64,000 bases of DNA from Candidatus Eiseniibacteriota bacterium (lineage in GTDB: Bacteria > Eisenbacteria > RBG-16-71-46 > JABDJR01). Below the pieces are notes generated by a model. The model was not told the DNA's origin. It saw only the letters and a list, made by a program, of their open reading frames with translations, and did not search any database. The position numbers and the translations under genes are program-made. Below, one piece after another: positions 51,095 through 64,000 of this stretch (within the stretch, counting starts at the first letter, position 1; each line of letters begins with the position of its first letter). The stretch lies in NCBI GenBank assembly GCA_963783375.1, contig CAWANH010000029.1, forward strand, positions 864,001-928,000, in the 5' to 3' direction.

Positions 51095-52249
51095 CTACTC
51101 CAGCCAGGAGGTGGGATAAGCGGGATCGTCCACCGCCATCACCGCCTTGGACACGGTGAGGGGGCGGAAGGTGTCCATCATCACCGCGATCTCGTTGGTC
51201 TCCTTGGCCCCGATCGAGGCCTCGGCCTTTCCGGGCTGGGGACCGTGGGGCAACCCGTCGGGGTGGTACGTTGCCGAGGCGAACTCCATCCCCTTCCGGC
51301 TCATGAACTCCCCTCCCGCGTAGAACAGGACCTCCTCGCTCTGCACGTTGGAGTGGTTGTAGGGGGCGGGAACGGCATCGGGGTCGAAATCGAAGGGCCG
51401 GGGGACGAAGGAACACACCACGAACCCGGTGCCCTCGAAGGTCTGATGGACCGGGGGCGGCTGGTGGATCCGGCCCACGATCGGCTCGAAGTCGCGGATG
51501 TTGAAGGCGAAGGGAAAATAGGTGCCGTCCCACCCCACCACGTCGAAGGGATGGGCACGCACCACGTGGCGGGTCACCGTATCCCGTTGCTTGGTGAGGA
51601 TGGAGTACTCCCCGGTCTCGTCCACGGTGCGGAGCCGGCCGGGGACCCGGATGTCGCGCTCGGTGAAGGGCGCCCCCTCCTTCATCTGGCCGTTCTCGTT
51701 CCGATAGCGGGCGGGAATCCGGATCGGGGTGGCGGACTCGATCACCAGGAACCGGTGCCCGCCCCCCTCCAGTTCATAGCGGTGAACGACCCCGCGCGGA
51801 ACCTGAAGATAGTCCCCCTCGCCGAAGGGGAGGTCTCCGAAGGGGGACTCAAGCACCCCGCGGCCCTCGACCACGTAGAGGAGTTCGTCCGCCTGGCCGT
51901 TCCGGTAGAAGCCGTCGTGGGCGCCGGTGGGCCGGACGAAGAGCAAGGCCACGTCGCGGTTGTAGACCACCGGAGTCCGGTCCAGGAAAATGTCCCCGCT
52001 CGGGGGGAGTTGGCCGAGGCGGAAGTGGTAGGGGCGGAGTGCGCGCTCCGCCGCCGGTTCCCAGCGAAGGTCCTTCACGACCTCGTAACGCAGGAGCTGG
52101 GTGGGCCGGTGGATGCGGTAGAGGAGGGACGAGGCCCCGGCGAAGCCCTTGTTTCCCATCAACTCCTCGTAGTAGATCCCCTCCCCGGGCTTCCGAAACG
52201 CGGTGTGGCGCTTGGGAGGGATCGTTCCCCGCTGCTGGTAGATGGGCAT
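51095..52249 (-). CDS. hmgA: Homogentisate 1,2-dioxygenase (short type)
   Basis: HPFDVVGWDG, HQPPPVHQTF, PYNHSN, HGPQPG; start overlaps hppD stop. Confidence 0.92.
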   Translation of the reverse strand: MPIYQQRGTIPPKRHTAFRKPGEGIYYEELMGNKGFAGASSLLYRIHRPTQLLRYEVVKDLRWEPAAERALRPYHFRLGQLPPSGDIFLDRTPVVYNRDVALLFVRPTGAHDGFYRNGQADELLYVVEGRGVLESPFGDLPFGEGDYLQVPRGVVHRYELEGGGHRFLVIESATPIRIPARYRNENGQMKEGAPFTERDIRVPGRLRTVDETGEYSILTKQRDTVTRHVVRAHPFDVVGWDGTYFPFAFNIRDFEPIVGRIHQPPPVHQTFEGTGFVVCSFVPRPFDFDPDAVPAPYNHSNVQSEEVLFYAGGEFMSRKGMEFASATYHPDGLPHGPQPGKAEASIGAKETNEIAVMMDTFRPLTVSKAVMAVDDPAYPTSWLE

Positions 52250-53343
52250 TACAGGTTTCCCCGGCGGGCCTGCTCCCGTTCGATAGCCTCGAACAGCGCC
52301 TTGAAATTCCCCTTCCCGAACCCCTGACAACCCCGGCGCTGGATGATCTCGTAGAACAGGGTGGGCCGGTCCTCCACCGGCTTGGAAAAGAGCTGGAGAA
52401 GGTACCCCTCGTCGTCCCGGTCGATCAGGATGCCCAAATCCTGGACCGCCTTCCGCGACTCCTTGATCTCCCCCACCCGATCCCAGATCAGTCGGTAGTA
52501 GCTGTCGGGGACGGTGAGGAACTCCACCCCCCGCTCACGGAGCCGGGACACGGTTTGGATGATATCTCCGGTCAGAAGCGCCACGTGCTGCACCCCGGGT
52601 CCCAGGTAGAAATCGAGGTACTCATCGATCTGGCTCTTCTTCCGGCCGGGGGCGGGCTCGTTCAAAGGGAACTTGATCCGCCCGCTCCCGTTCGACATCA
52701 CCTTGGACATGAGCGCCGAGTACTCGGTCGAGATGTCCTTGTCGTCGAAGCTCATGAACCGGCGGAAGCCGAAGACCTCCTCGTAGTAGCCGGCCCAGAC
52801 GTCCATCTTCCCCAGCTCCACGTTCCCCACCATGTGATCGATGGCCAGGAGCCCCACGTCGGCGCTCGGAACCTCGTCGGCCGCGTATCCGGGGAGAAAC
52901 GGCCCGTCGTAGTCGTTCAATTGGATGAGGCTGTGGATGGTGTCGCCGTAGGTGGCGATCCCCGCCCGCTCGACCGAGCCGTGCTCGTCGCTGTCGGTGC
53001 GCGGTTTGTAGTCGGCCTTCCCTCCCCGAGCCACCGAGGCGCGGAAGCTCTGCCCCACGTCCTCCACCTCGAAGGCGATGTCCTTCACCCCGTCCCCGTG
53101 AAGCTTCAGGTGTTCCACCATCGGCCCCTCGGGCTGGAGCGGCGTGGTGAAGACGAAGACGATCTTCCCCTGGCGGAGCGCGTAGGAGGCGCGGTCCCGG
53201 ACTCCGGTCTCGGGACCCGCGTAGGCGAAGCGGCTGAATCCGAAGGCGTTCCGGTAGTAGTACTCGGCCTGTTTGGCGTTTCCCACCCAGAACTCCACGT
53301 GATGAATCGACTTGAGAGGCAGTTCGTCGTCATGCTTGGGCAT
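52249..53343 (-). CDS. hppD: 4-hydroxyphenylpyruvate dioxygenase
   Basis: [40 protein letters not shown]. Confidence 0.97.
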
Positions 53344-53384: not shown

Positions 53385-56300
53385 TCAGACCTCGGCCATC
53401 GCCTCGCGCACCGAAAAGTACCGGGCGTCGGGATGGTGGAGGACGAGGGCGGAGACCGAAGCCTCGGGCTCCATCATGTACCCGTCGGTGAGTTCGACCC
53501 CGATCCTTCGCTGGGGCTCGAGGAGACGCCAGAGCGCCGCCTGGTCCTCGAGGTCGGGGCAGGCCGGATAGCCGAAGGAGACCCGAAGGCCGCGGTAACG
53601 GGCCTGAAAAATGTCCTTGGGGGAAAGCTCCGGCGGATCCGGGAAGCCCCACATCGCGCGGATCTTCCGGTGGAGGAACTCCGCGAACCCTTCCGCGCTC
53701 TCGATGGCCAGGGCCTGGAGCGCGTAGGATTTCAGGTACTCCCCCGCCTCCTTCCAGGCCTCGGCGCGGTCCCTCACCCCGCTCCCGCAGGTCACCACGA
53801 AAGCGGCGAGATAGTCGGTGCGCCCGGAGGACTTCGGCGCGAACCAGTCGGCCAGGCACAGACGATCCCGGTCGCTCTGGCGGGGGAAATCGAAGCGGGC
53901 GATCTCGGGACCGCCGGGACGCTCGACCAGGACCACGCTGTCCCCGTCCGCCTGCGCCGCGTAGAACCGGTAGACCGCCCGGGGGGTCATGAGCCCGAGG
54001 CTCAGCACCTCGTCCTTGAGCGCCTCCACCGCCTCCTCGAGCTTGGCCGTCTTGACGTCGCCCTGCTCGCGGAGCCGCTCGATCGACCCTCGGAGCCCCA
54101 GGTGCTTCACGTAGAGCATCTGGGGGTTCACGAAGGGGAAGATCTCCTCGAGCCCGACGTTCTCCACCACGTGGAGCTTCAGGTCCGGCGGCTCGGGGAT
54201 CTCCACCTCGCGCCACCCCGCCACCGGCGCCGCCGGGGCGGTCGCGCTTTCCGGAACCGCCACCGGAGCGGCCTCGCGCCGACCCGCCCGCTCGGCGAAG
54301 AGCGCGTCCCGGCGGGACGGGTCCACCAACCGTTGGGCCACGCCGAGCCCGTCCATGGCGTCCCGGCAGTAGATCACCGGCCCCGGGTACCCGGCGGCGA
54401 TCCGGGTCTCGGTGAACTTCCGGGTGAGCGCCGCCCCCCCCACGAGAATCGGGGCGGACACGCCGGCCTCGGCCAGATCCTGGGCGGTCACCACCATCTG
54501 TTGGGCGGACTTCACCAGGAGCCCGGAGAGGCCGATCATGTCCGGCCGGTGCTTCTTGGCCGCATCGATCAGGTCCTGGGGCGGGACCTTGATGCCCAGA
54601 TTCACCACCTCGAATCCGTTGTTGGCGAGCACGATCTCCACCAGGTTCTTCCCGATGTCGTGCACGTCGCCCTTCACCGTGGCCAGCATCACCTTGCCCC
54701 GGCTCCGGCTGTCCGCCTTCTCCATGTAGGGCTCGAGGTGCGACACCGCCGCCTTCATGGCTTCGGCGCTCTGGAGCACTTCGGCCACGATGAGCTCGTT
54801 CCGGTTGAAGAGGCGCCCCACCTCGTCCATCCCCTTCATGAGCGGACCGTTGATGATCTGGAGCGGCGGAGTCCCGGCCCGCGCCCGCTCCAGGTCCTCG
54901 ATCAGCCCGTCCCGGGATCCCTCGATGATGTAGTCGGCGAGCCGCTCCTCGAGGCTCCGGTTCTCCTTCTTCGGCTTCGTGCGGGTGGCGGAACGGTTCC
55001 GGTAGAACGCGGCGAACGCGGCGATCGGGTCCTCTCCCCGGTCCATGAGCAGGTCCTCGGCCAGGCGCCGCTCCTCCTCGGGAATGGACGCGTAGCGCTC
55101 CAGCTTCTCGCTGTTCACGATGGCCAGATCCAGTCCGGCCTCGATGCAGTGGTGGAGGAAGACCGAGTTCAGGACCTCGCGTCCCGCAGGGGGAAGGCCG
55201 AAGGAGACGTTGGAGATCCCCAGGATGGTCTTCGATCGCGGAAACGCCTCCTTGATGAGGCGGACCCCCTCGATGGTCTCCACCGCACTCCCCACGTAGG
55301 CCCGGTCCCCGGTGGCGCAGGGAAAGACCAGGGGGTCGAAGATCAGGTCCTCCTCGGGAACGCCGTAGTCGCGGGTAAGGAGTTCGTGGGAGCGCCGGGC
55401 GATCTCGAGCTTCCGCGCCCGGGTCACCGCCATCCCCTGCTGGGGATCCTCGTCGATGGTGCCGACCACCAGGGCCGCGCCGAACTTCCGGGCCAGGGGG
55501 ACCACGGCCCGGAACCGTTCCTCCCCGTCCTCCAGGTTCACCGAGTTGATGATCGACTTCCCCTGGCAGCGCCGGAGCGAGCGATCGATCACCGCGGCGT
55601 CGGTGCTGTCGATCATGAGGGGGAGTTTCACCTTGCGGGCCACGCGCTCCAGAAACCGGTCCATGTCCGCCGTCTCGTCCCGGTCGGGGTCGGCCAGGCA
55701 GACGTCCAGCACGTGCGCCCCTCCCCGCATCTGCCGGCGTCCGATCTCCGCGGCCTCCTCGAACTGCCCGGCCTGGATCAGGGACTTGAACTTGCGGCTC
55801 CCGATGACGTTGGTGCGCTCTCCCACGATGATCGGGCGGTTTTCTTCCTCGAGGGAGAGAAAGTCGATGCCGGATACCCGCGAGAAGCGACCGTGGACCG
55901 GGGTCCGAGGCGCCTTCCCCGACACGGCGGCGGCGATGGCCCGGATGTACTCCGGCGTGGTGCCGCAGCAGCCTCCCACCAGGTTCACCCACCCGTGCTC
56001 GGCGAAGCGCCCGAGCACCGAGGCCAGCTTCTCCGGGGACTCGTTGTAGCGCCCGTCCTCGTCGGGGAGCCCGGCGTTGGGAACGCAGGAAACCGCGCAC
56101 TCGGCGATCGCGGCCAGGGAGCGCACGTGGTCGGTCATGAAGGAGGGGCCGGTGGCGCAGTTGAGCCCGATGGCCAGGAGGTCCAGGTGCTCCAGGCTGG
56201 CATAGAGCGCCTCCACTCCCTGTCCGGCCAGCATGGCGCCCATCGGCTCGATGGTCCCGGAGATCGCCATCGGCACCCGGCGCCCGACGATCTCCGCGGC

Positions 56301-56846
56301 CTCGGCAATCCCCAGGGTGGCCGCCTTCACGTTCAGGGTATCCTGGGAGGTCTCCACCATCAGGAAATCGGCTCCCCCCTCGATCAGACCCGCCGCCTGC
56401 TCGCGGTAGTGGGCAACCATTTCGTCGAAGGTGACCCCCCCGGTGACCGAGATGGTCTTGGTGGTCGGGCCCATGCTGCCGGCCACGAAACGGGGCTTGT
56501 CGGGGGTCGCGAACTCCGCCGCCGCTCGAACGGCGATCTCCGCCGCGGCGCGGTTCAGTTCCCGGGCCCGTTCGGCCAGACCGTACTCGGCCAGGACCAG
56601 GGGCGTCCCCCCGAAGGTGTCGGTCTCGATGATGTCGGCGCCGGCGGCGAGGAAGCTCCGATGGATGTCGAGGATCGCCCCGGGATTCACCACGCTCAGG
56701 TACTCGTTGCACCCGTCGAACTCCGCCCCCCCGAACGCCTCCGGATCCAGGTCGAGGTTCTGGATGGAGGTCCCCATCGCCCCGTCCAGGACGAGGATGC
56801 GGCGGGTCATGAGGTCCTTGAGCAGGACGATTCGGTCATCGGGCAC
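53385..56846 (-). CDS. metH: Cobalamin-dependent methionine synthase
   Basis: [42 protein letters not shown]. Confidence 0.97.
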
Positions 56847-56959
56847 GTCGGTGTCCTCGGGTCGGAGAAGGAAGCGGGCGGCGGGGCGCGGGCGGGCCCG
56901 CCGGCCGGATATACGCCGGCCGCGGAGCGCGCTCGTCGCCCTCCCACGGTCGAACATGC

Positions 56960-56968
56960 ATTGTAGCA
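56960..56968 (-). promoter_or_regulatory. Extended -10 TGcTACAAT for metH
   Basis: About 115 nt upstream of the GTG start. Confidence 0.55.
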
Positions 56969-57146
56969 AACACGGTTACGGGGTCGAGGGGCGGGGACGG
57001 TCCCTCCCTCCCGGGGACCGGTCCGAGGCCTCGGCGGGCGCGCGCCGGGGCCCTTGGGCACGAAGAGAGCCGGGGATCGGTGCCGATCCCCGGCTCGTGA
57101 CGGTCATGACGGTTGCGGGCGGGCGGCCGCCCTTCCCACCGGGCGG

Positions 57147-57413
57147 CTAGGGGCGCCTCCCGCCGGGCTGTTCCCGGGCGAGGTCCACCCGGATGGCCCG
57201 TCCGTCGAGCATCTGTCCGTCCATCTCCTTGGCCGCCGCTTCCGCCGACTCCTCGGAGGTGAAGGTTACGAACCCGAATCCCCGGGAACGACCGGTGTCC
57301 CGGTCCTGAACGACCCGCGCCTCCATGATCTCTCCGAAGGCGGAGAACGCCTCCTGCAGGCTGGTGTCATCCGTCTTCCACGCCAAACCACCGATAAAGA
57401 GCTTCTTGGCCAT
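57147..57413 (-). CDS. RRM-domain RNA-binding protein
   Basis: RNP2 LFIGGL, RNP1 RGFGFVTF. Confidence 0.96.
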
Positions 57414-57638
57414 ATCGCGACTCGCACTCCACTTGGTGCGCGCCGTCGGGATCGAGGTTCCCTCGGGACGCGCGTCTACAGGCATCCGCGGAAACGTGTG
57501 GAGAAGGACCGGTAGGAACCGAAGCCGGGTTAGCGCTTGGAGGCCCCGAGGTCTTCTTGCAGCATCGTAAGCGCGGCGATCTCGATCCGGCCGCCGGGGC
57601 CGGCGTTCCGGCCGAGACGAGACAACCGGAACGATCCT

Positions 57639-57894: not shown

Positions 57895-59151
57895 TCAGGG
57901 CTCCGGCGGAAAGAGGTATTCGAGGATGGTGCCCAGACGCGCGGACCACGCCGCCTCGTTGTGGAGCGCGCCGGGATACTCGGCGTAGACCAGATCCCCG
58001 CCCAGGGTCCAACCCCGGGCCATGAGCGCGTCCCGGAGTCGCCGGGCGCCGGCCACGGTCTGCGCCGCGTCCTGGGCGTTGGCGCCCTCGGCGGTCCCGG
58101 TGTCGAGCCAGATGCGGGTGTCGGTCTTGGGGGCGGCGCTCACCCGGCTCACGATGTCCTCGTCCGCCCACCACACCGACGGCGACACCACCCCGATCCG
58201 CGAGTACACCTCGGGATGGCGGAGCGCGAGGTACATGGAGACCAGACCCCCCAGGGACGAACCGGCCACCCCGGTGTGCCCGCGATCCGGCAACGTGCGG
58301 TAGGCGGCGTCGATCGTCGGCTTCAGCTCCTCCACCAGGAAGCGACCGTAGTTCTCGGCGTCGCCCCCCCGCTGCTGCGCGTCGACCGCCGGAGTGTACT
58401 CGGCGATCCGGTCGGAGGTGTTGTAGACCCCCACCACGATGAGCGGGGCGATCCTGCCCTCGCCGATCAGCCGTTCCGCGGTCTCGTCCACGTTCCATTC
58501 CTGGCCCAGGAACCCGGTGGCGCGGTCGAAGAGATTCTGTCCGTCGTGCATGTAGAGGACCGGATAGCGACGGGAAGGATGGTCGTCGTAACCGGGAGGA
58601 AGGTAGACCGCCACGTCCCGGGCCGGCTCGAGGAAGCGGCTGGTCACGTTCCGGAGATAGCGAACGTCGCCGGTCACGGTGTGGGGAACCGCGCCTTCGA
58701 CCCAGTCCCGCCAGGTGGCCACCTCCACCCGGACGGTATCGTCCGCCACCACGAGGTGCCGGCGGTTGGGCAGCTCGGAGCCGTCGGCCGCTTTCTCCAC
58801 CGAATCCCATCCTCCCCGCGTCACCTTGAACTCGAGGGAGGTGCTCTCGGGAAAGGACGCCGTGGCCTCGTAGAGGCGGTCGCCCACGCGCCGGGCGGCC
58901 AGTCCCGTCCCACTCCAGTTTCCGAGGGACCCCTGGTTCCCCGAGATCCAGAGGACGGAGTCTTCGGGGGTCTTCTCGGGCACGGTGATCCGGAAAACGA
59001 CGATGGGGTCGCCGGGCGGGCCGGCCTCGGGCGCGGCCGGACTCGAGGCGCTCCCGCTGCATCCCAACGCCATGGCCAACCCCCACATCAAGAAGCCCCG
59101 TCGGAGCGCAAGGGCCCCGATTCCTCGCCGCCTTGCGTGTGTTCCCGACAC
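57895..59151 (-). CDS. Lipoprotein with CBM20-like domain and alpha/beta esterase domain
   Basis: Lipobox ALGC, ISGN..SLGNW, EFKVTRG.W, YMHDGQNLF, GSSLGG, HNEAAW. Confidence 0.85.
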   Translation of the reverse strand: MSGTHARRRGIGALALRRGFLMWGLAMALGCSGSASSPAAPEAGPPGDPIVVFRITVPEKTPEDSVLWISGNQGSLGNWSGTGLAARRVGDRLYEATASFPESTSLEFKVTRGGWDSVEKAADGSELPNRRHLVVADDTVRVEVATWRDWVEGAVPHTVTGDVRYLRNVTSRFLEPARDVAVYLPPGYDDHPSRRYPVLYMHDGQNLFDRATGFLGQEWNVDETAERLIGEGRIAPLIVVGVYNTSDRIAEYTPAVDAQQRGGDAENYGRFLVEELKPTIDAAYRTLPDRGHTGVAGSSLGGLVSMYLALRHPEVYSRIGVVSPSVWWADEDIVSRVSAAPKTDTRIWLDTGTAEGANAQDAAQTVAGARRLRDALMARGWTLGGDLVYAEYPGALHNEAAWSARLGTILEYLFPPEP

Positions 59152-59293
59152 CGATCCTCCCTTCCCGGCCGCGATTCCCGCTCCGCGGCGAGACCGGAGA
59201 GTCTACACCATGGAAAAGCAGTGGACTCGGGGGCGATTTTCCGGTAGCTCTATACGATTGGTAGGTTACCGCCGGGGCCTTACAGGGGGGGCC

Positions 59294-60319
59294 ATGCTCG
59301 ATCGTAGGCAGGAAGAGAGCGATGCCGCCCGGCGGGCCTACTGCCGGGACATCCTTCCCCATGTCTCCCGTACCTTTGCTCTCTCCATCCCGGTCCTGGA
59401 GGAACCCCTGCGCTTCCAGGTGGGAATCTCATACCTCCTCTGCCGGATCGTGGATACGGTGGAGGACCGCGACGACCTGGCTCCGGAGACCCGCCGCGCA
59501 CTCTTCGAGGAACTGACCCGCCTGGTCCGGGCTCCAGGCGACCAGGCGGCCCGGCGCCGCTTCCAGGAACTCCTCCCTCCCTACGGGGACGTTCACCACG
59601 AGAGCCTCCTCCGTCACGCCGGAGACGTATTCGACTGCTACGCGGCGATCGAACCCGGCGCGCGCCGGGATGTGAGCGAGTGCTTGGACGAGATGATCGG
59701 CGGCATGGCTTCCTACCCCGGCCCCGCGCGGGGGCCGGCTCCGGTGGAGGCCTGCCGGAACCTGGACGAGCTGGAGCGCTACTGTCACGTGGTGGCAGGG
59801 ACGGTGGGCATCCTCCTCTCCCGGTTCTTCGGGCGGGCGTTGGGCGATGCGGGCTGGCTCACTCCGGGGCGCGCCGAGTCGGGGCGGCGATTCGGGCTCG
59901 GACTCCAGCTCACCAACGTCATCAAGGATCACGATCGCGACGGACGGCGCGGGATCACCTACCTTCCCCGGGGGTGGTTCCAGCAGCTCGACGGCCGCAC
60001 GCTCCTCCGGCCGGAGGCCGCGCGCCGGGTGATCGTCCGCGCGCTGGAACACATGGACGCCGCCGAGGACTACATCCTCTCCCTCCCGCCGCGCCGGACG
60101 GACATGCGCCGCTTCTGCCTGTATGCCGCCCACCTGGCCCTGGCCACCCTGTACCTGGCCGCGCGACCCGATCCCCCTGGCGCGCCGGCCAAGGTGAGCC
60201 GCGAGGACGTGGCGGTGATCCTGGGACGCGTCGACCGCCACGCCGACGACGACGACGGTCTGCATTCGCTCTACCAGGGCTATCGCGACGCGGTGGCGGC
60301 GGCGGTCGACACGCTCTGA
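59294..60319 (+). CDS. Squalene/phytoene synthase family, squalene synthase-like
   Basis: VSRTFAL, YLLCRIVDTVED, CHVVAGTVG, GLQLTNVIKD. Confidence 0.88.
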   Translation: MLDRRQEESDAARRAYCRDILPHVSRTFALSIPVLEEPLRFQVGISYLLCRIVDTVEDRDDLAPETRRALFEELTRLVRAPGDQAARRRFQELLPPYGDVHHESLLRHAGDVFDCYAAIEPGARRDVSECLDEMIGGMASYPGPARGPAPVEACRNLDELERYCHVVAGTVGILLSRFFGRALGDAGWLTPGRAESGRRFGLGLQLTNVIKDHDRDGRRGITYLPRGWFQQLDGRTLLRPEAARRVIVRALEHMDAAEDYILSLPPRRTDMRRFCLYAAHLALATLYLAARPDPPGAPAKVSREDVAVILGRVDRHADDDDGLHSLYQGYRDAVAAAVDTL

Positions 60320-60448
60320 TTCCGCTCCGGCGCTCCCGTCCGTCCCGGGGCGCAACCCGAACGGCCGCGACGCCCGCGGAACGTCCCCGGCTGGCCCGGA
60401 CCAAGCAGAACCGGGGGCCCCGCTCGGGACCCCCGGTGCAATCGAATC

Positions 60449-60467
60449 GGAAACGCTCCGCGCTTCC
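60449..60467 (-). promoter_or_regulatory. Candidate bacterial SECIS hairpin GGAAGCGC-GGA-GCGTTTCC
   Basis: Loop begins with G, 36 nt after the in-frame TGA; could instead be a terminator. Confidence 0.35.
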
Positions 60468-60474
60468 CGGCCGG

Positions 60475-60684
60475 CTAGCCGCATCCCCCCGTGCCTCAGG
60501 TGGGCACGAAACGGGTCGGCGCGCCACCGCCACCGCCCCCGATGTGGGGGGCGCTGACCCTTCGGCTCGCCCCATCGTGGCCGCAGTCGGGGCAGGCCAC
60601 GTCGTCCCGGTCGCGCTCGGCGATCAGGAGATTCTCTTCGAACACCCGCCCGCAGGCCGGGCACTGGAAATCGTAGTTCGGCAT
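60475..60684 (-). CDS. FmdB-family zinc-ribbon protein; ends at TGA 60496 or reads through as Sec to TAG 60475
   Basis: MPNYDFQCPACG...CPDCG; tail PT(TGA)GTGGCG(TAG); GAGG RBS. Confidence 0.85.
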
Positions 60685-60837
60685 GATCGCTTCCTCGTTC
60701 GCTGCGGCCGCCCACGGCCTCCCATCCCTCTCGGCGCTACACACACCGGGTCCACCGGGTCGGACGCGATTCCCGCCGATCGGTCACACCCGAAACGGGG
60801 ACATCGCCGGGTGGCGATGCCTCGCCTCGGGTTCCGG

Positions 60838-62130
60838 TCAGATCCCCGAGGCCGCGGCGGTCCCGGCCACGAATCCGCTCGCCCAGGCCCACTGGAAGTT
60901 GTACCCCCCGATCCGTCCATCCACATCCAGGATCTCCCCGCAGAGGTGGAGCCCGGGGGCGAGCCGGGACTCCAGGGTCTCGAGCCGGAGTTCGGCCAGG
61001 GGCACGCCGCCGGCCGTCACCTCGGCGAAATTGTAGCCGCGGTGGCCGGTGACCGGGAGCGGATAGTCGATCACCGAGGCCACCAACGCGCGCCGTTCTT
61101 CCCGGGTGAGGGCGTGTCCGGGCCGGCCGGGATCCACCCCCGCGGCCTCGCAGAGGGCGCGGCCCAGGCGTTCGGGGAGCCGGTCCCCCAGGTATCGCCC
61201 CACGGTCCGCGCCCGAAGCCCCCGGAGCGCGGCATCCAGACTCGCGCCGGTCTCCTCGGGAAGCCAGTTCACCGCCAGGTGGGCACCGGGCTCGGCGGCC
61301 ACCGCGCTCAGGTAGTAGCGGCTCATGTCCATCACGTTGGGCCCCGAGACACCGAAGTGCGTGCAGAGGATCGATCCGGTGAGGCGCTCCTGACGCCTTC
61401 CGGTGGCGCCTCGAAGCTCGAGGGTGGCTTGGGCGGAAACCCCGGAGAGCGCGCGGAGCGGGTGGCCGTCGGGGAGAGTGAGCGGCACCAGCCCCGGCAG
61501 GATCCGCGGGGTGAGGGTGTGCCCGAGGAACCGCGCCAGCGCGTACCCGTGTCCGTCCGATCCCGAGCGGGGAAGGCTCCGGCCGCCGGTGGCCAGGATC
61601 ACGCGCCGGGCGTGGAGGCGCGCGGGGTTCGCCCCCGCACCGGTGTCCGCCCCCTCCGAGGCCTCGGCGCGCGCGAGCACGAACCCGTCCTCGGAGCGGC
61701 GCACCGACTCGACCCGCCAGGGATTACGAACCTCCACATCGGCTTCCCGGACCGCCCCCAGGAGGGCGTCGAGCACGCTGCGGGCGCGGTCGCTCACCGG
61801 GAAGAGCTTTCCCGTTTCCTCCCGCTTGAGTTCGACCCCGAGTTCGGCAAAGAAGGCCACGGTGCGGGGAACGTCGTAGCGGAGGAGCACCTTCCGGATC
61901 GCCCGGCGCGAGGAACCGGCGAAGGCGGACTCGTCCACGCGATCGTGGGTGACGTTGCAGCGCCCGCCGCCGGACACCAGGATCTTGGCCCCGAGCTTCT
62001 TCGCCCGGTCCAGGACGACGATGCGGAGCGCCCCCGGGCCGCGGGCTCTGCCGGCCTGAACCGCGGCCATGAGACCGGCGGCTCCCGCCCCCACCACCGC
62101 GATGTCCACCCGCTCCTCGGTCGACGACAA
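60838..62130 (-). CDS. HI0933/YhiN/BaiN family NAD(P)/FAD-dependent oxidoreductase
   Basis: GAGAAG, KILVSGGGRCNVT, THFGVSGP, VTAGGV, GGYNFQWAWASG. Confidence 0.93.
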   Translation of the reverse strand: MSSTEERVDIAVVGAGAAGLMAAVQAGRARGPGALRIVVLDRAKKLGAKILVSGGGRCNVTHDRVDESAFAGSSRRAIRKVLLRYDVPRTVAFFAELGVELKREETGKLFPVSDRARSVLDALLGAVREADVEVRNPWRVESVRRSEDGFVLARAEASEGADTGAGANPARLHARRVILATGGRSLPRSGSDGHGYALARFLGHTLTPRILPGLVPLTLPDGHPLRALSGVSAQATLELRGATGRRQERLTGSILCTHFGVSGPNVMDMSRYYLSAVAAEPGAHLAVNWLPEETGASLDAALRGLRARTVGRYLGDRLPERLGRALCEAAGVDPGRPGHALTREERRALVASVIDYPLPVTGHRGYNFAEVTAGGVPLAELRLETLESRLAPGLHLCGEILDVDGRIGGYNFQWAWASGFVAGTAAASGI

Positions 62131-62178: not shown

Positions 62179-64000
62179 CTAGTCGAGCACGATCTCCGAG
62201 GCCGGCTCCCGCAGATTGTAGCGGGAACTCATGACCGCGCCGTAGGCCCCGGCGTTCTCGATCAGGAGAACGTCGCCGGGTTCCGGATCGGGGAGCGATC
62301 GGTCGCGGCCGAGGACGTCCCCCGATTCGCAGATCGGACCCACGATCTGCCAGTAGCGCCGGCACGGCTCGTCCAGCCGGCTCAGGTTGTGAATGGTGTG
62401 CCAGGCGCCGTAGAGGGCGGGGCGAAGGAGGGAGTTCATCCCGGTGGTGAGCCCCGCGTAGTGGACGCCTTCCTTGGTCCGGACCTGGGTGACCGGGGCG
62501 ATCAGCACCCCCCCTTCGCTGACCAGGAACCGGCCCGGCTCCAGGCGAAGATCGAGCCCGGGAACCCGCGCGCGAAGCTCGGCCAGACGCGCTTCGAGCA
62601 GGGCGAGGTCGAGGGGAGCCTGCCCTGGGCGCTCGGGGACCCCCAACCCGCCGCCCAGATCGAGCCAGCGCGCCTCGGGAAATAGCTCGCGGATCCCGGC
62701 CAGGGCTTCCCCGGTTCTGAGCCAGACGTCGGGATCGAAGATCCCGCTCCCGACGTGGGCGTGAAGGCCGGTGACCCTCGCCCCCGCCCGCGACGCGGCC
62801 TCGACCAGCGCGTCCAGATCCCCGAGGGGCTGCCCGAACTTGGCCCGCGCGCCCGCGGTCCGCACCGTGGGATGGTGGCCGAAGCCGCGACCCGGATCGA
62901 GCCGGACCGCCACATCGCGGCCACGGAAGAGCTCGGGGTTGGCTTCGAATGCACCGGGACCGTCCACCGTGATCTCGGCGCCGACGGCCGCCGCCGCCGT
63001 GTACTCCTCCGGGGGGCAGAAATTCGGAGTGAAGAGCACCGGACACCCGGATCCCGCGACGGCCCGCGCCCGCTCCACCTCGGCCGCGGACACGCACTCC
63101 AGCCCGTAGCCCGCCCCGGCGAGAACGGCGAGAACGTCGGGGTGGGAGTTGGCCTTCATCGCATAGTAGAACCGGTTGATCGAGGGGAGGTCGCGCCGGA
63201 GCGCTTCGGCTCGGGCCCGGATCGCGCCGAGGTCGTAGACGTAGTGCGCGCGGCCGTCCGCCGCAATCTTCAGGAGTTCCTCCCGCCGGCCCCGCCACCA
63301 CGCCGGGGCGACCTGCTCGCCCGGGCGGCCGCCCCGGAGCATCTCCCAGCTGGGACCGAGACGCGGATCCTCGTCGTGGGCGGAAAAGAGGCGCGCGTGG
63401 AGCCGGGCGACCAGGGGCTGGGCGTCCGCCTCGTCCACCACGAAAGAGACGTTCAGATCCTCGGCGGAGACGCTCACCAGGTGCACCGGGTGCTCCTGGA
63501 ATGCCTCGAAGGCGGGGCCGAGCTCGTGGAGGACGGCGCGAATCCGCCGGCCGACGATCGACACCACCGCCGCGGGATGGACGATCCGGACCGTCCCCAG
63601 CTCCTCGAGGCGCCGCACCAGCTCCCGGAACGCCCGTCCCTCCATCCCCCCCGGAACCGTGTCCAGGGTGACGCTCACCGCGAACTCCGAGGTGGTCACG
63701 AGGTCGACCGAGATCCCCAGATCCCGGAACGGCTCGAAGACCCGCGCCAGATAGCCGGGGGTTCCCCACATGGCCAGGGCGGAGAGATTCACCAGGGTCA
63801 CCGAGGTGCGGCAGGTCACCGCGGTCACCGCAGGATGGGCGCCGTCGTCGGCCTCGATCCGGGTGCCTTCGATCTCCGGAGACTGGACCCGGGCCACCCG
63901 CACCGGGATCCGGTGGCGCGCCGCCGGAACCAGGCAGCGGGGATGAAGGACCTTCGCCCCCAGGCTGGCCAGTTCCTGGGCTTCCCGGTAGCCGATCCGG
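62179..64000 (-). CDS. Bifunctional aspartate kinase / diaminopimelate decarboxylase, 5' end outside window
   Basis: EAQELASLGAKVLHP and ACT domains, then YAMKAN, HAHVGSG, EPGRFLV, GPICESGD, GAYG. Confidence 0.93.
   Translation of the reverse strand, partial: RIGYREAQELASLGAKVLHPRCLVPAARHRIPVRVARVQSPEIEGTRIEADDGAHPAVTAVTCRTSVTLVNLSALAMWGTPGYLARVFEPFRDLGISVDLVTTSEFAVSVTLDTVPGGMEGRAFRELVRRLEELGTVRIVHPAAVVSIVGRRIRAVLHELGPAFEAFQEHPVHLVSVSAEDLNVSFVVDEADAQPLVARLHARLFSAHDEDPRLGPSWEMLRGGRPGEQVAPAWWRGRREELLKIAADGRAHYVYDLGAIRARAEALRRDLPSINRFYYAMKANSHPDVLAVLAGAGYGLECVSAAEVERARAVAGSGCPVLFTPNFCPPEEYTAAAAVGAEITVDGPGAFEANPELFRGRDVAVRLDPGRGFGHHPTVRTAGARAKFGQPLGDLDALVEAASRAGARVTGLHAHVGSGIFDPDVWLRTGEALAGIRELFPEARWLDLGGGLGVPERPGQAPLDLALLEARLAELRARVPGLDLRLEPGRFLVSEGGVLIAPVTQVRTKEGVHYAGLTTGMNSLLRPALYGAWHTIHNLSRLDEPCRRYWQIVGPICESGDVLGRDRSLPDPEPGDVLLIENAGAYGAVMSSRYNLREPASEIVLD

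Follow-up and report, generated by a model that had tools for sequence, protein, structure and literature searches.

The gene analysed here lies on the minus strand of a 64,000-nucleotide stretch of DNA from a Candidatus Eiseniibacteriota bacterium, referred to below as the window. Its ATG, at 60684, is preceded at 7 nt by a GAGGA element resembling a Shine-Dalgarno sequence (60692..60696, minus strand, assigned from the sequence), and 62 codons are read ahead of an in-frame TGA at 60498-60496. Past this TGA the frame goes on as GGC ACG GGG GGA TGC GGC and is closed by a TAG at 60477-60475. If the TGA (60496..60498, minus strand) encodes selenocysteine (Sec), the predicted Sec63, then the full gene (60475..60684, minus strand) specifies a read-through product of 69 residues with FVPT-U-GTGGCG as its C-terminus. 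The read-through tail GTGGCG (60478..60495, minus strand), which would give the protein a U-x4-C-G end, is missed by gene callers.

Residues 1-42 (60559..60684, minus strand) form an FmdB-family zinc ribbon with knuckles C8/C11 and C31/C34, matched by TIGR02605 (52.8 bits, cut-off 31.3) and by PF09723 (45.8 bits, cut-off 34.4). The four cysteines were unchanged across 22 aligned rows, and C8 and C11 are both encoded by TGC in the window gene. From the anatomy of the domain, these residues are assumed to bind a metal, taken to be zinc. The ribbon is followed by a Gly-rich, low-complexity linker with a Pro-Thr end (60499..60558, minus strand), predicted to be flexible; P61 and T62 are constant in 7/7 orthologs. 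AlphaFold2 modelled the ribbon with confidence (pLDDT 81-87 over residues 1-40) and gave an unstructured linker and tail (pLDDT 54-63, without secondary structure). Foldseek and PDB sequence searches returned generic zinc ribbons or zinc fingers and no solved FmdB-family structure; RNAP P/Rpb12-type ribbons and rubredoxins came up by fold with weak scores, none reaching E <= 0.001.

The gene is flanked by a squalene/phytoene synthase-like gene (58985-60319, plus strand), scoring below all NCBIfam equivalog cut-offs, and by a gene for an HI0933 flavoprotein (60838-62130, minus strand). This pair surrounds the members of family f1, to which the window genome belongs, and neighbours elsewhere are unrelated. 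Since the pair is not kept in G033, a genome of another family that carries the same tail, this is probably plain synteny. The other listed neighbours in the window are ordinary genes, all on the minus strand: a putative esterase with a weak CBM20 match (57895-59151), a single-RRM RNA-binding protein (57147-57485), a B12-dependent methionine synthase (53385-56969), a glyoxalase-superfamily protein which we take to be HPPD-like (52249-53325), and a fusion of an ACT domain with a PLP decarboxylase (62179-63903). Among 34 flanking ORFs, collected within 1.5 kb of 28 loci, there was no redox or metal partner gene, nor any gene for metal transport, Fe-S, YcaO, radical SAM, peptidase-transporter or similar maturase functions. 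In two homologs with all-Cys tails (L040:1757-2011 of f10 and L046:1192-1446 of f12) the next gene downstream is of the HU/IHF kind (PF00216), an arrangement that was not seen for the Sec-tail members examined.

The machinery for selenocysteine insertion was found in the genome (97% complete, 69% GC), with matches to selA (551 bits), selB (327 bits), selD (390 bits) and tRNA-Sec (68.5 bits); selD itself contains one in-frame TGA. The sole tRNA with a TCA anticodon found by ARAGORN ends in G-CCA and scores as tRNA-Sec. TGA is at the same time the stop of 2030 of the 3109 predicted genes (65%), and 10% of TGA gene ends are followed by a second stop at most 8 codons further on. In the sample of relatives, selA was found in 59 of 61 genomes, and in 6 of the 7 carriers of the PT-TGA tail. 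The remaining carrier, G033 (81% complete), gave no selA match, but selB, tRNA-Sec and a TGA-containing selD were recovered from it. G033 and G326, with a TGA and a hairpin and no selA, were considered as counter-examples and rejected, as both have selB and tRNA-Sec.

A crude scan of the window genome (G000) returned 12 other internal-TGA candidates. About 7 of these, C28, C29 and C3 included, combine a hairpin with a recognisable selenoprotein motif: thioredoxin UxxC, SelW CxxU, MsrA, peroxiredoxin TxxU, UshA CxU and two HST-U/SHT-U redoxins, all labels that were given from motifs and not from HMMs. The other 5 resemble ordinary stops or are ambiguous. The peroxiredoxin-like TxxU candidate, again named from its motif, has the same GGA loop as the window gene.

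This loop (60459-60457) belongs to a bacterial SECIS-type hairpin with an 8-bp stem at 60449..60467 on the minus strand. The hairpin is wholly 3' of the TAG, so that its stem is under no coding constraint. Its loop has 3 nt with a G first, is closed by a C-G pair and lies 36 nt past the TGA; the predicted energy is -10.1 kcal/mol, and the pair probability 0.91-0.92 in a 140-nt context. Compared with shuffled sequences the fold is not unusually stable (z-scores of -0.07 over 63 nt and -0.62 over 36 nt). This spacing is close to the upper limit of 16-37 nt set by the model; in most relatives with Sec as the second member of the tail pair (U-last) it is 16-22 nt. A stronger, GC-rich and terminator-like hairpin (60411..60436, minus strand, z -2.06) is found between the convergent genes; the promoter and terminator scan returned 0 promoters and 0 terminators, and thus left it uncalled. 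An Rfam scan of 60300-60800 produced no SECIS family, with a single chance match to P33 (E 8).

The earlier note, made from the letters alone, had described the ...FVPT-x-GTGGCG frame and an 8-bp stem with a GGA loop 36 nt past the TGA, and both readings are correct. As to the SECIS search that it proposed, the window hairpin and those of the other orthologs (7/7 in all) fit the bSECIS constraints as coded in our own detector, and the Rfam SECIS models do not match the window hairpin. Its statement that FmdB tails are Gly/Cys-rich holds for one paralog type, while tails of the GSGFY type are rich in Lys and Ser.

A second hairpin, made of the tail codons and the stop, is predicted between the UGA and the SECIS element in family f1, about 7-28 nt past the TGA (60468-60495 in the window). 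Its stem has 8 bp in L024 and L025 and 6 bp in L026, and is weak in the window gene. Such a structure could cut the effective distance from UGA to loop. In L028, where the SECIS element overlaps the stop at 22 nt, no such spacer hairpin is predicted.

The detector, used in place of bSECISearch, was built from the bSECIS constraints given in the Fig. 2 legend of PMC13188914 and tightened to a perfect stem of at least 6 pairs, a loop of 3-5 nt with G[G/U], a spacing of 16-37 and an energy <= -7.5; it was tuned after examples had been seen. In the window genome it finds a hairpin past 86 of 2028 TGA, 44 of 927 TAG and 6 of 149 TAA gene ends. Within the same phylum, a hairpin was found in 37 of 71 tail-type genes ending in TGA and in 0 of 13 ending in TAA/TAG, and in none of the GSGFY-type (0/30) or short-type (0/8) paralogs; these counts cover 95 of 121 matches plus further loci, the orthologs among them, 5 of 60 regions being unparsed and 8 metagenome loci left out. 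In Desulfobacterota (58 loci of 261 matches) the proportions were 20/40 for TGA tails and 0/12 for TAA/TAG tails. This phylum is unusable as a negative control because selA is present in 125 of its 131 genomes; the single hairpin case without selA is G326, where selB and tRNA-Sec are present. For Planctomycetota (42 loci of 64 matches, 2 unparsed), TGA tails had a hairpin in 4 of 12 cases where selA is present and in 0 of 6 where it is not; three of these selA-negative genomes also lack selB and tRNA-Sec matches. The difference is in the expected direction but not significant in so small a sample (p 0.25). When the three phyla were pooled, 61 of 129 tail-type genes ending in TGA had a hairpin, versus 0 of 39 ending in TAA/TAG. 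In a set of 43 TGA tails with a read-through of 1-8 residues, 34 had a hairpin. At each of the stem pairs 1-5, two to four kinds of Watson-Crick or GU pair occur, with compensatory changes among the orthologs, while the loop keeps G[G/U]; this covariation is partly built in because the detector selects perfect stems.

We then have the evidence of the orthologs. The window protein matches 37 of the 61 genomes, and the best seven matches each contain one TGA. These seven carriers, six genomes of family f1 (the window genome included) and G033, fall into 2 families. All seven read PT-TGA-G-x-G-G-C-x-stop, and all have TGA as the first stop, while the second stop varies between TAG, TAA and TGA. 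Over the five codons past the TGA, the third position varies in 4/5 and the first and second in 1/5, and pairwise differences amount to 34 synonymous and 9 non-synonymous (six orthologs, the near-copy L023 being left out). Past the real stop, variation extends to 20 of 21 columns. In the two nearest database clusters every member (9/9) ends at PT, and a word-index protein search gave 3 matches. Reads from four DNA sequencing runs did not reach the TGA codon. A metagenome scan with the protein yielded 8 loci, all of other paralog types or cut off, and no member with Sec first in the tail pair (U-first). Taken alone, neither the TGA nor the hairpin of the window sequence is beyond chance. The comparative signal in these sequences is: TGA, GxGGC and hairpin occur together in 7/7 orthologs, against a hairpin background of 4.2%, with the reservation that the 7 carriers are kin and hence not independent observations, so that p-values calculated from them are overstated.

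The state of the TGA column was followed further in relatives. A GTDB-wide scan for a ribbon followed by P-[ST]-[C/U]-G-x-small-G-C recovered 15 loci, 6 with TGA and 9, from other phyla, with TGC/TGT. The six TGA loci are relatives already in the ortholog set, each with a hairpin, and bring no new evidence. One of the nine Cys loci, L174, has a TGA of its own four codons upstream, with a hairpin; at the other eight P[ST]-C-GxGG-C loci, which place Cys at the Sec63 column, no hairpin was found. A search for selA found it in 5 of the 6 genomes with the TGA form and in 2 of the 8 that have Cys only. The alignment of Cys with the TGA column rests on a short low-complexity motif, and an exact PT-C-GxGG-C ortholog was not found within the phylum. 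Among the top 150 library representatives of a profile search, the motif P[TS]C-x4-C is seen in 8, and 7 others stop at PT. A further 50 of the 150 (among P0017-P0161) end in GFS, GFT or GFG, an ending that precedes a TGA and a hairpin in genomes with readable DNA.

In the window gene Sec would be the first member of the tail pair (U-x4-C), whereas in many other Eisenbacteria and Desulfobacterota it is predicted second in the same pair (C-x4..7-U). U-last tails of Eisenbacteria, for example PS-C-SSGG-U, amount to 27 cases with a hairpin, with a spacing mostly of 4-7; among relatives at large, the Cys-to-Sec spacing ranges from 2 to 7 residues. Three states of one tail pair thus exist, as predicted from the genes: C-x4-C, C-x4-U and U-x4-C. 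An unrooted tree of 50 columns has one starred clade in which the 7 U-first rows are joined by 2 U-last rows on long branches; this clade sits inside a weakly supported U-last group. This is compatible with a switch from U-last to U-first, the order of which is not fixed by 50 columns.

Other arrangements were also met. In L174, L242, L252, L264 and L225, from Planctomycetota and Desulfobacterota that have selA, the TGA comes earlier in the tail: it stands after a Gly, the 10-12 residues beyond it include one or two Cys, and a SECIS-type hairpin is present in each case. L232 and L254, from Planctomycetota, end in PT-TGA-SxCN, with weak GGA-loop hairpins just under threshold; PT-U thus occurs outside Eisenbacteria, with another spacing.

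We conclude that the TGA of the window gene is very likely read as Sec, judging from the genes and genomes compared. This is what the earlier note had proposed, and machinery, orthologs, hairpin and Cys homologs all speak for it. The ortholog alignment that the note suggested showed TGA and GxGGC kept in 7/7 and Cys at the column in other phyla; the selA, selB, selD and tRNA-Sec genes that it advised looking for are all in the 97%-complete genome; the truncation by ORF callers is borne out by the 9/9 cluster members stopping at PT; and Sec use in this lineage, for the note an implication, is almost universal. The recoding mechanism is the ordinary SelB/SECIS one: as in the known bacterial pathway, SelB-GTP-Sec-tRNA would bind the G-containing loop and outcompete RF2 at the UGA. 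The best explanation for the locus as a whole, in which we have high confidence, is an FmdB ribbon whose TGA is very likely decoded as Sec by the genome's own SelA, SelB, SelD and tRNA-Sec together with the hairpin; the tail of the predicted product likely serves as a flexible selenol/thiol redox arm.

What the tail does, given recoding, is a matter of more balanced judgement. By analogy, the chances that Sec63/Cys68 would be a redox arm are about even; that the two residues would be a pair of metal ligands is only slightly less likely, and any other role for the tail is improbable. As a redox arm, the tethered pair would cycle between selenenylsulfide and selenolate-thiol; it may otherwise bind a soft metal. 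From the anatomy of the protein, either form could report to, or act on, a partner of the ribbon. The strongest competing account of the locus is that Sec is inserted in a pair of soft-metal or Fe-S ligands (for example for Cu(I), Hg, Zn or a cluster) and not in a redox couple, which we regard as possible without being probable. The tails of all-Cys relatives hold 3-4 Cys (CxxCxxxxCxxC, CxxxxCxC), which makes them look like metal sites rather than redox pairs; in L041 and L263 a TGA takes the place of one Cys of a four-Cys motif; and the Cys-Sec spacing of 2 to 7 is unlike that of fixed catalytic motifs. However, the window protein and most U-last relatives have just two chalcogens in the tail, the 34 flanking ORFs lack metal transport and Fe-S genes, and Cys535/Cys540 of P. 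falciparum thioredoxin reductase (TrxR) are a known example of a catalytic disulfide with C-x4-C spacing (PMC8395237).

Far less likely, in our opinion, is that the TGA is a true stop and that GxGGC and the hairpin make up a structure conserved in the 3' untranslated region, such as a terminator or a barrier to RNase, or what is left of a former Cys tail. TGA is indeed the commonest stop of this genome, 10% of TGA ends have a second stop close behind, and post-gene hairpins are common, the one in the window being of ordinary stability. Yet a true stop accounts poorly for variation concentrated at third codon positions after the TGA, for a TGA always first while the second stop changes, for a loop that keeps G[G/U] while the stem changes, and for the lack of hairpins after tail genes ending in TAA/TAG (0/39). 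The hairpin has no U-run, moreover, and a separate, stronger one lies downstream.

A precursor of the RiPP or selenobacteriocin kind, in which the ribbon would serve for recognition and the tail would be the core peptide, is just as unlikely. FmdB tails do resemble bacteriocin precursors, according to the notes of the TIGR02605 model. The C-terminal peptide is rich in Gly, Cys and Thr, and PMC13188914 lists a 'selenobacteriocin' whose motif is SGUG. Nevertheless, no maturase gene was found among the 34 flanking ORFs, and no NCBIfam selenobacteriocin model matched. A reading of the TGA as Cys, Trp or Gly, through a suppressor tRNA or a changed code, is hardly credible: UGA-reading tRNA-Cys types exist and the column aligns with Cys, but TGA stops 65% of genes, the lone TCA-anticodon tRNA scores as tRNA-Sec, and selA, selB and selD are present.

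Returning to decoding as Sec, a broader scenario can be drawn, which we put forward as doubtful. Sec-tail FmdB ribbons would form a large, multi-phylum, uncatalogued group in which Sec moved within the tail pair (C-x4-C, C-x4-U, U-x4-C) and the SECIS element shifted past the stop. In the U-first form, a stop at the UGA loses both chalcogens, so that the ratio of 62-aa to 69-aa products could act as a selenium-dependent on/off switch of a small regulator. If recoding holds more generally, a common family of small proteins hides many selenoproteins missed by pipelines, because the 1-12 residues past the UGA give homology filters nothing to align. Genes with TGA and hairpin number 37 in Eisenbacteria, 20 in Desulfobacterota and 4 in Planctomycetota in our samples, 3 of the 37 being probably chance matches with complete Cys tails; the selenoproteomes of these three phyla would then be undercounted. 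Comparing the Cys/Cys, Cys/Sec and Sec/Cys states would be a natural experiment on the contribution of selenium and its dependence on position, and a SECIS element wholly in the 3' UTR, free of coding constraint, would be a clean tool for the spacing rules of SelB.

Sec-containing members of the FmdB family had been predicted before, as the earlier note stated; in those members Sec is placed in a knuckle of the zinc ribbon and not in the tail. Table 4 and Dataset S2 of PMC2398784 report two single GOS marine reads as selenoproteins under 'Putative regulatory protein, FmdB family', and the entries for these reads in PMC13188914 and PMC9312934 give TIGR02605 as UxxU or U/CxxU, only that form. 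They share with the window gene the TIGR02605 zinc-ribbon family and UGA recoding with a bacterial SECIS. In these reads Sec is in the first CxxC knuckle of the G-x-G-W-Y paralog type, whereas the window gene keeps all four ribbon Cys, has its predicted Sec in the C-terminal tail, belongs to another paralog type and is found in many genomes. The published FmdB Sec being in the knuckle, it is no precedent for the tail site, and a different Sec position is treated as a distinct subfamily in PMC13188914. NCBIfam 20.0 has no selenoprotein model for a GxGGC tail. Term searches in the main texts of deep-Sep (PMC12013277), BSepDB (PMC13326102), SelCysML (PMC13745706) and the preprint by Haft and Gwadz found none of the words FmdB, zinc and ribbon; Table S2 of BSepDB and the supplements of the preprint could bear on the matter. 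A literature search found nothing joining Eisenbacteria with selenocysteine, or the FmdB family with zinc ribbon; publications on selenoprotein and zinc ribbon were unrelated by title, and PMC11227280 deals with an unrelated formylmethanofuran dehydrogenase subunit. The predicted tail Sec site, with its probable switch of position, is thus absent for this family from the catalogues checked.

Thioredoxin reductases offer the nearest parallel for the tail itself. In the mammalian enzyme, a flexible C-terminal arm ends in a Cys-Sec pair. The C-terminal arm of the high-Mr enzyme of P. falciparum (Cys535/Cys540, PMC8395237) has, like the window protein, a chalcogen pair near the C-terminus with four residues between. 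This is an analogy only, the window protein having no homology to these enzymes, no flavin domain and no known electron donor. With respect to the bSECIS model (PMC13188914, Fig. 2A legend), the window hairpin agrees in its G-first 3-nt loop, C-G closing pair, 8-bp stem and allowed spacing, and differs in being wholly in the 3' UTR, at the far end of that spacing, and without an Rfam match. Finally, KCU-star and SaoC (bioRxiv 10.1101/2022.07.06.499078), small selenoproteins that came to light through their truncation in databases, have other folds and CU motifs; they resemble the window protein in having Sec near the C-terminus, hidden from view since database members end at one aligned residue.
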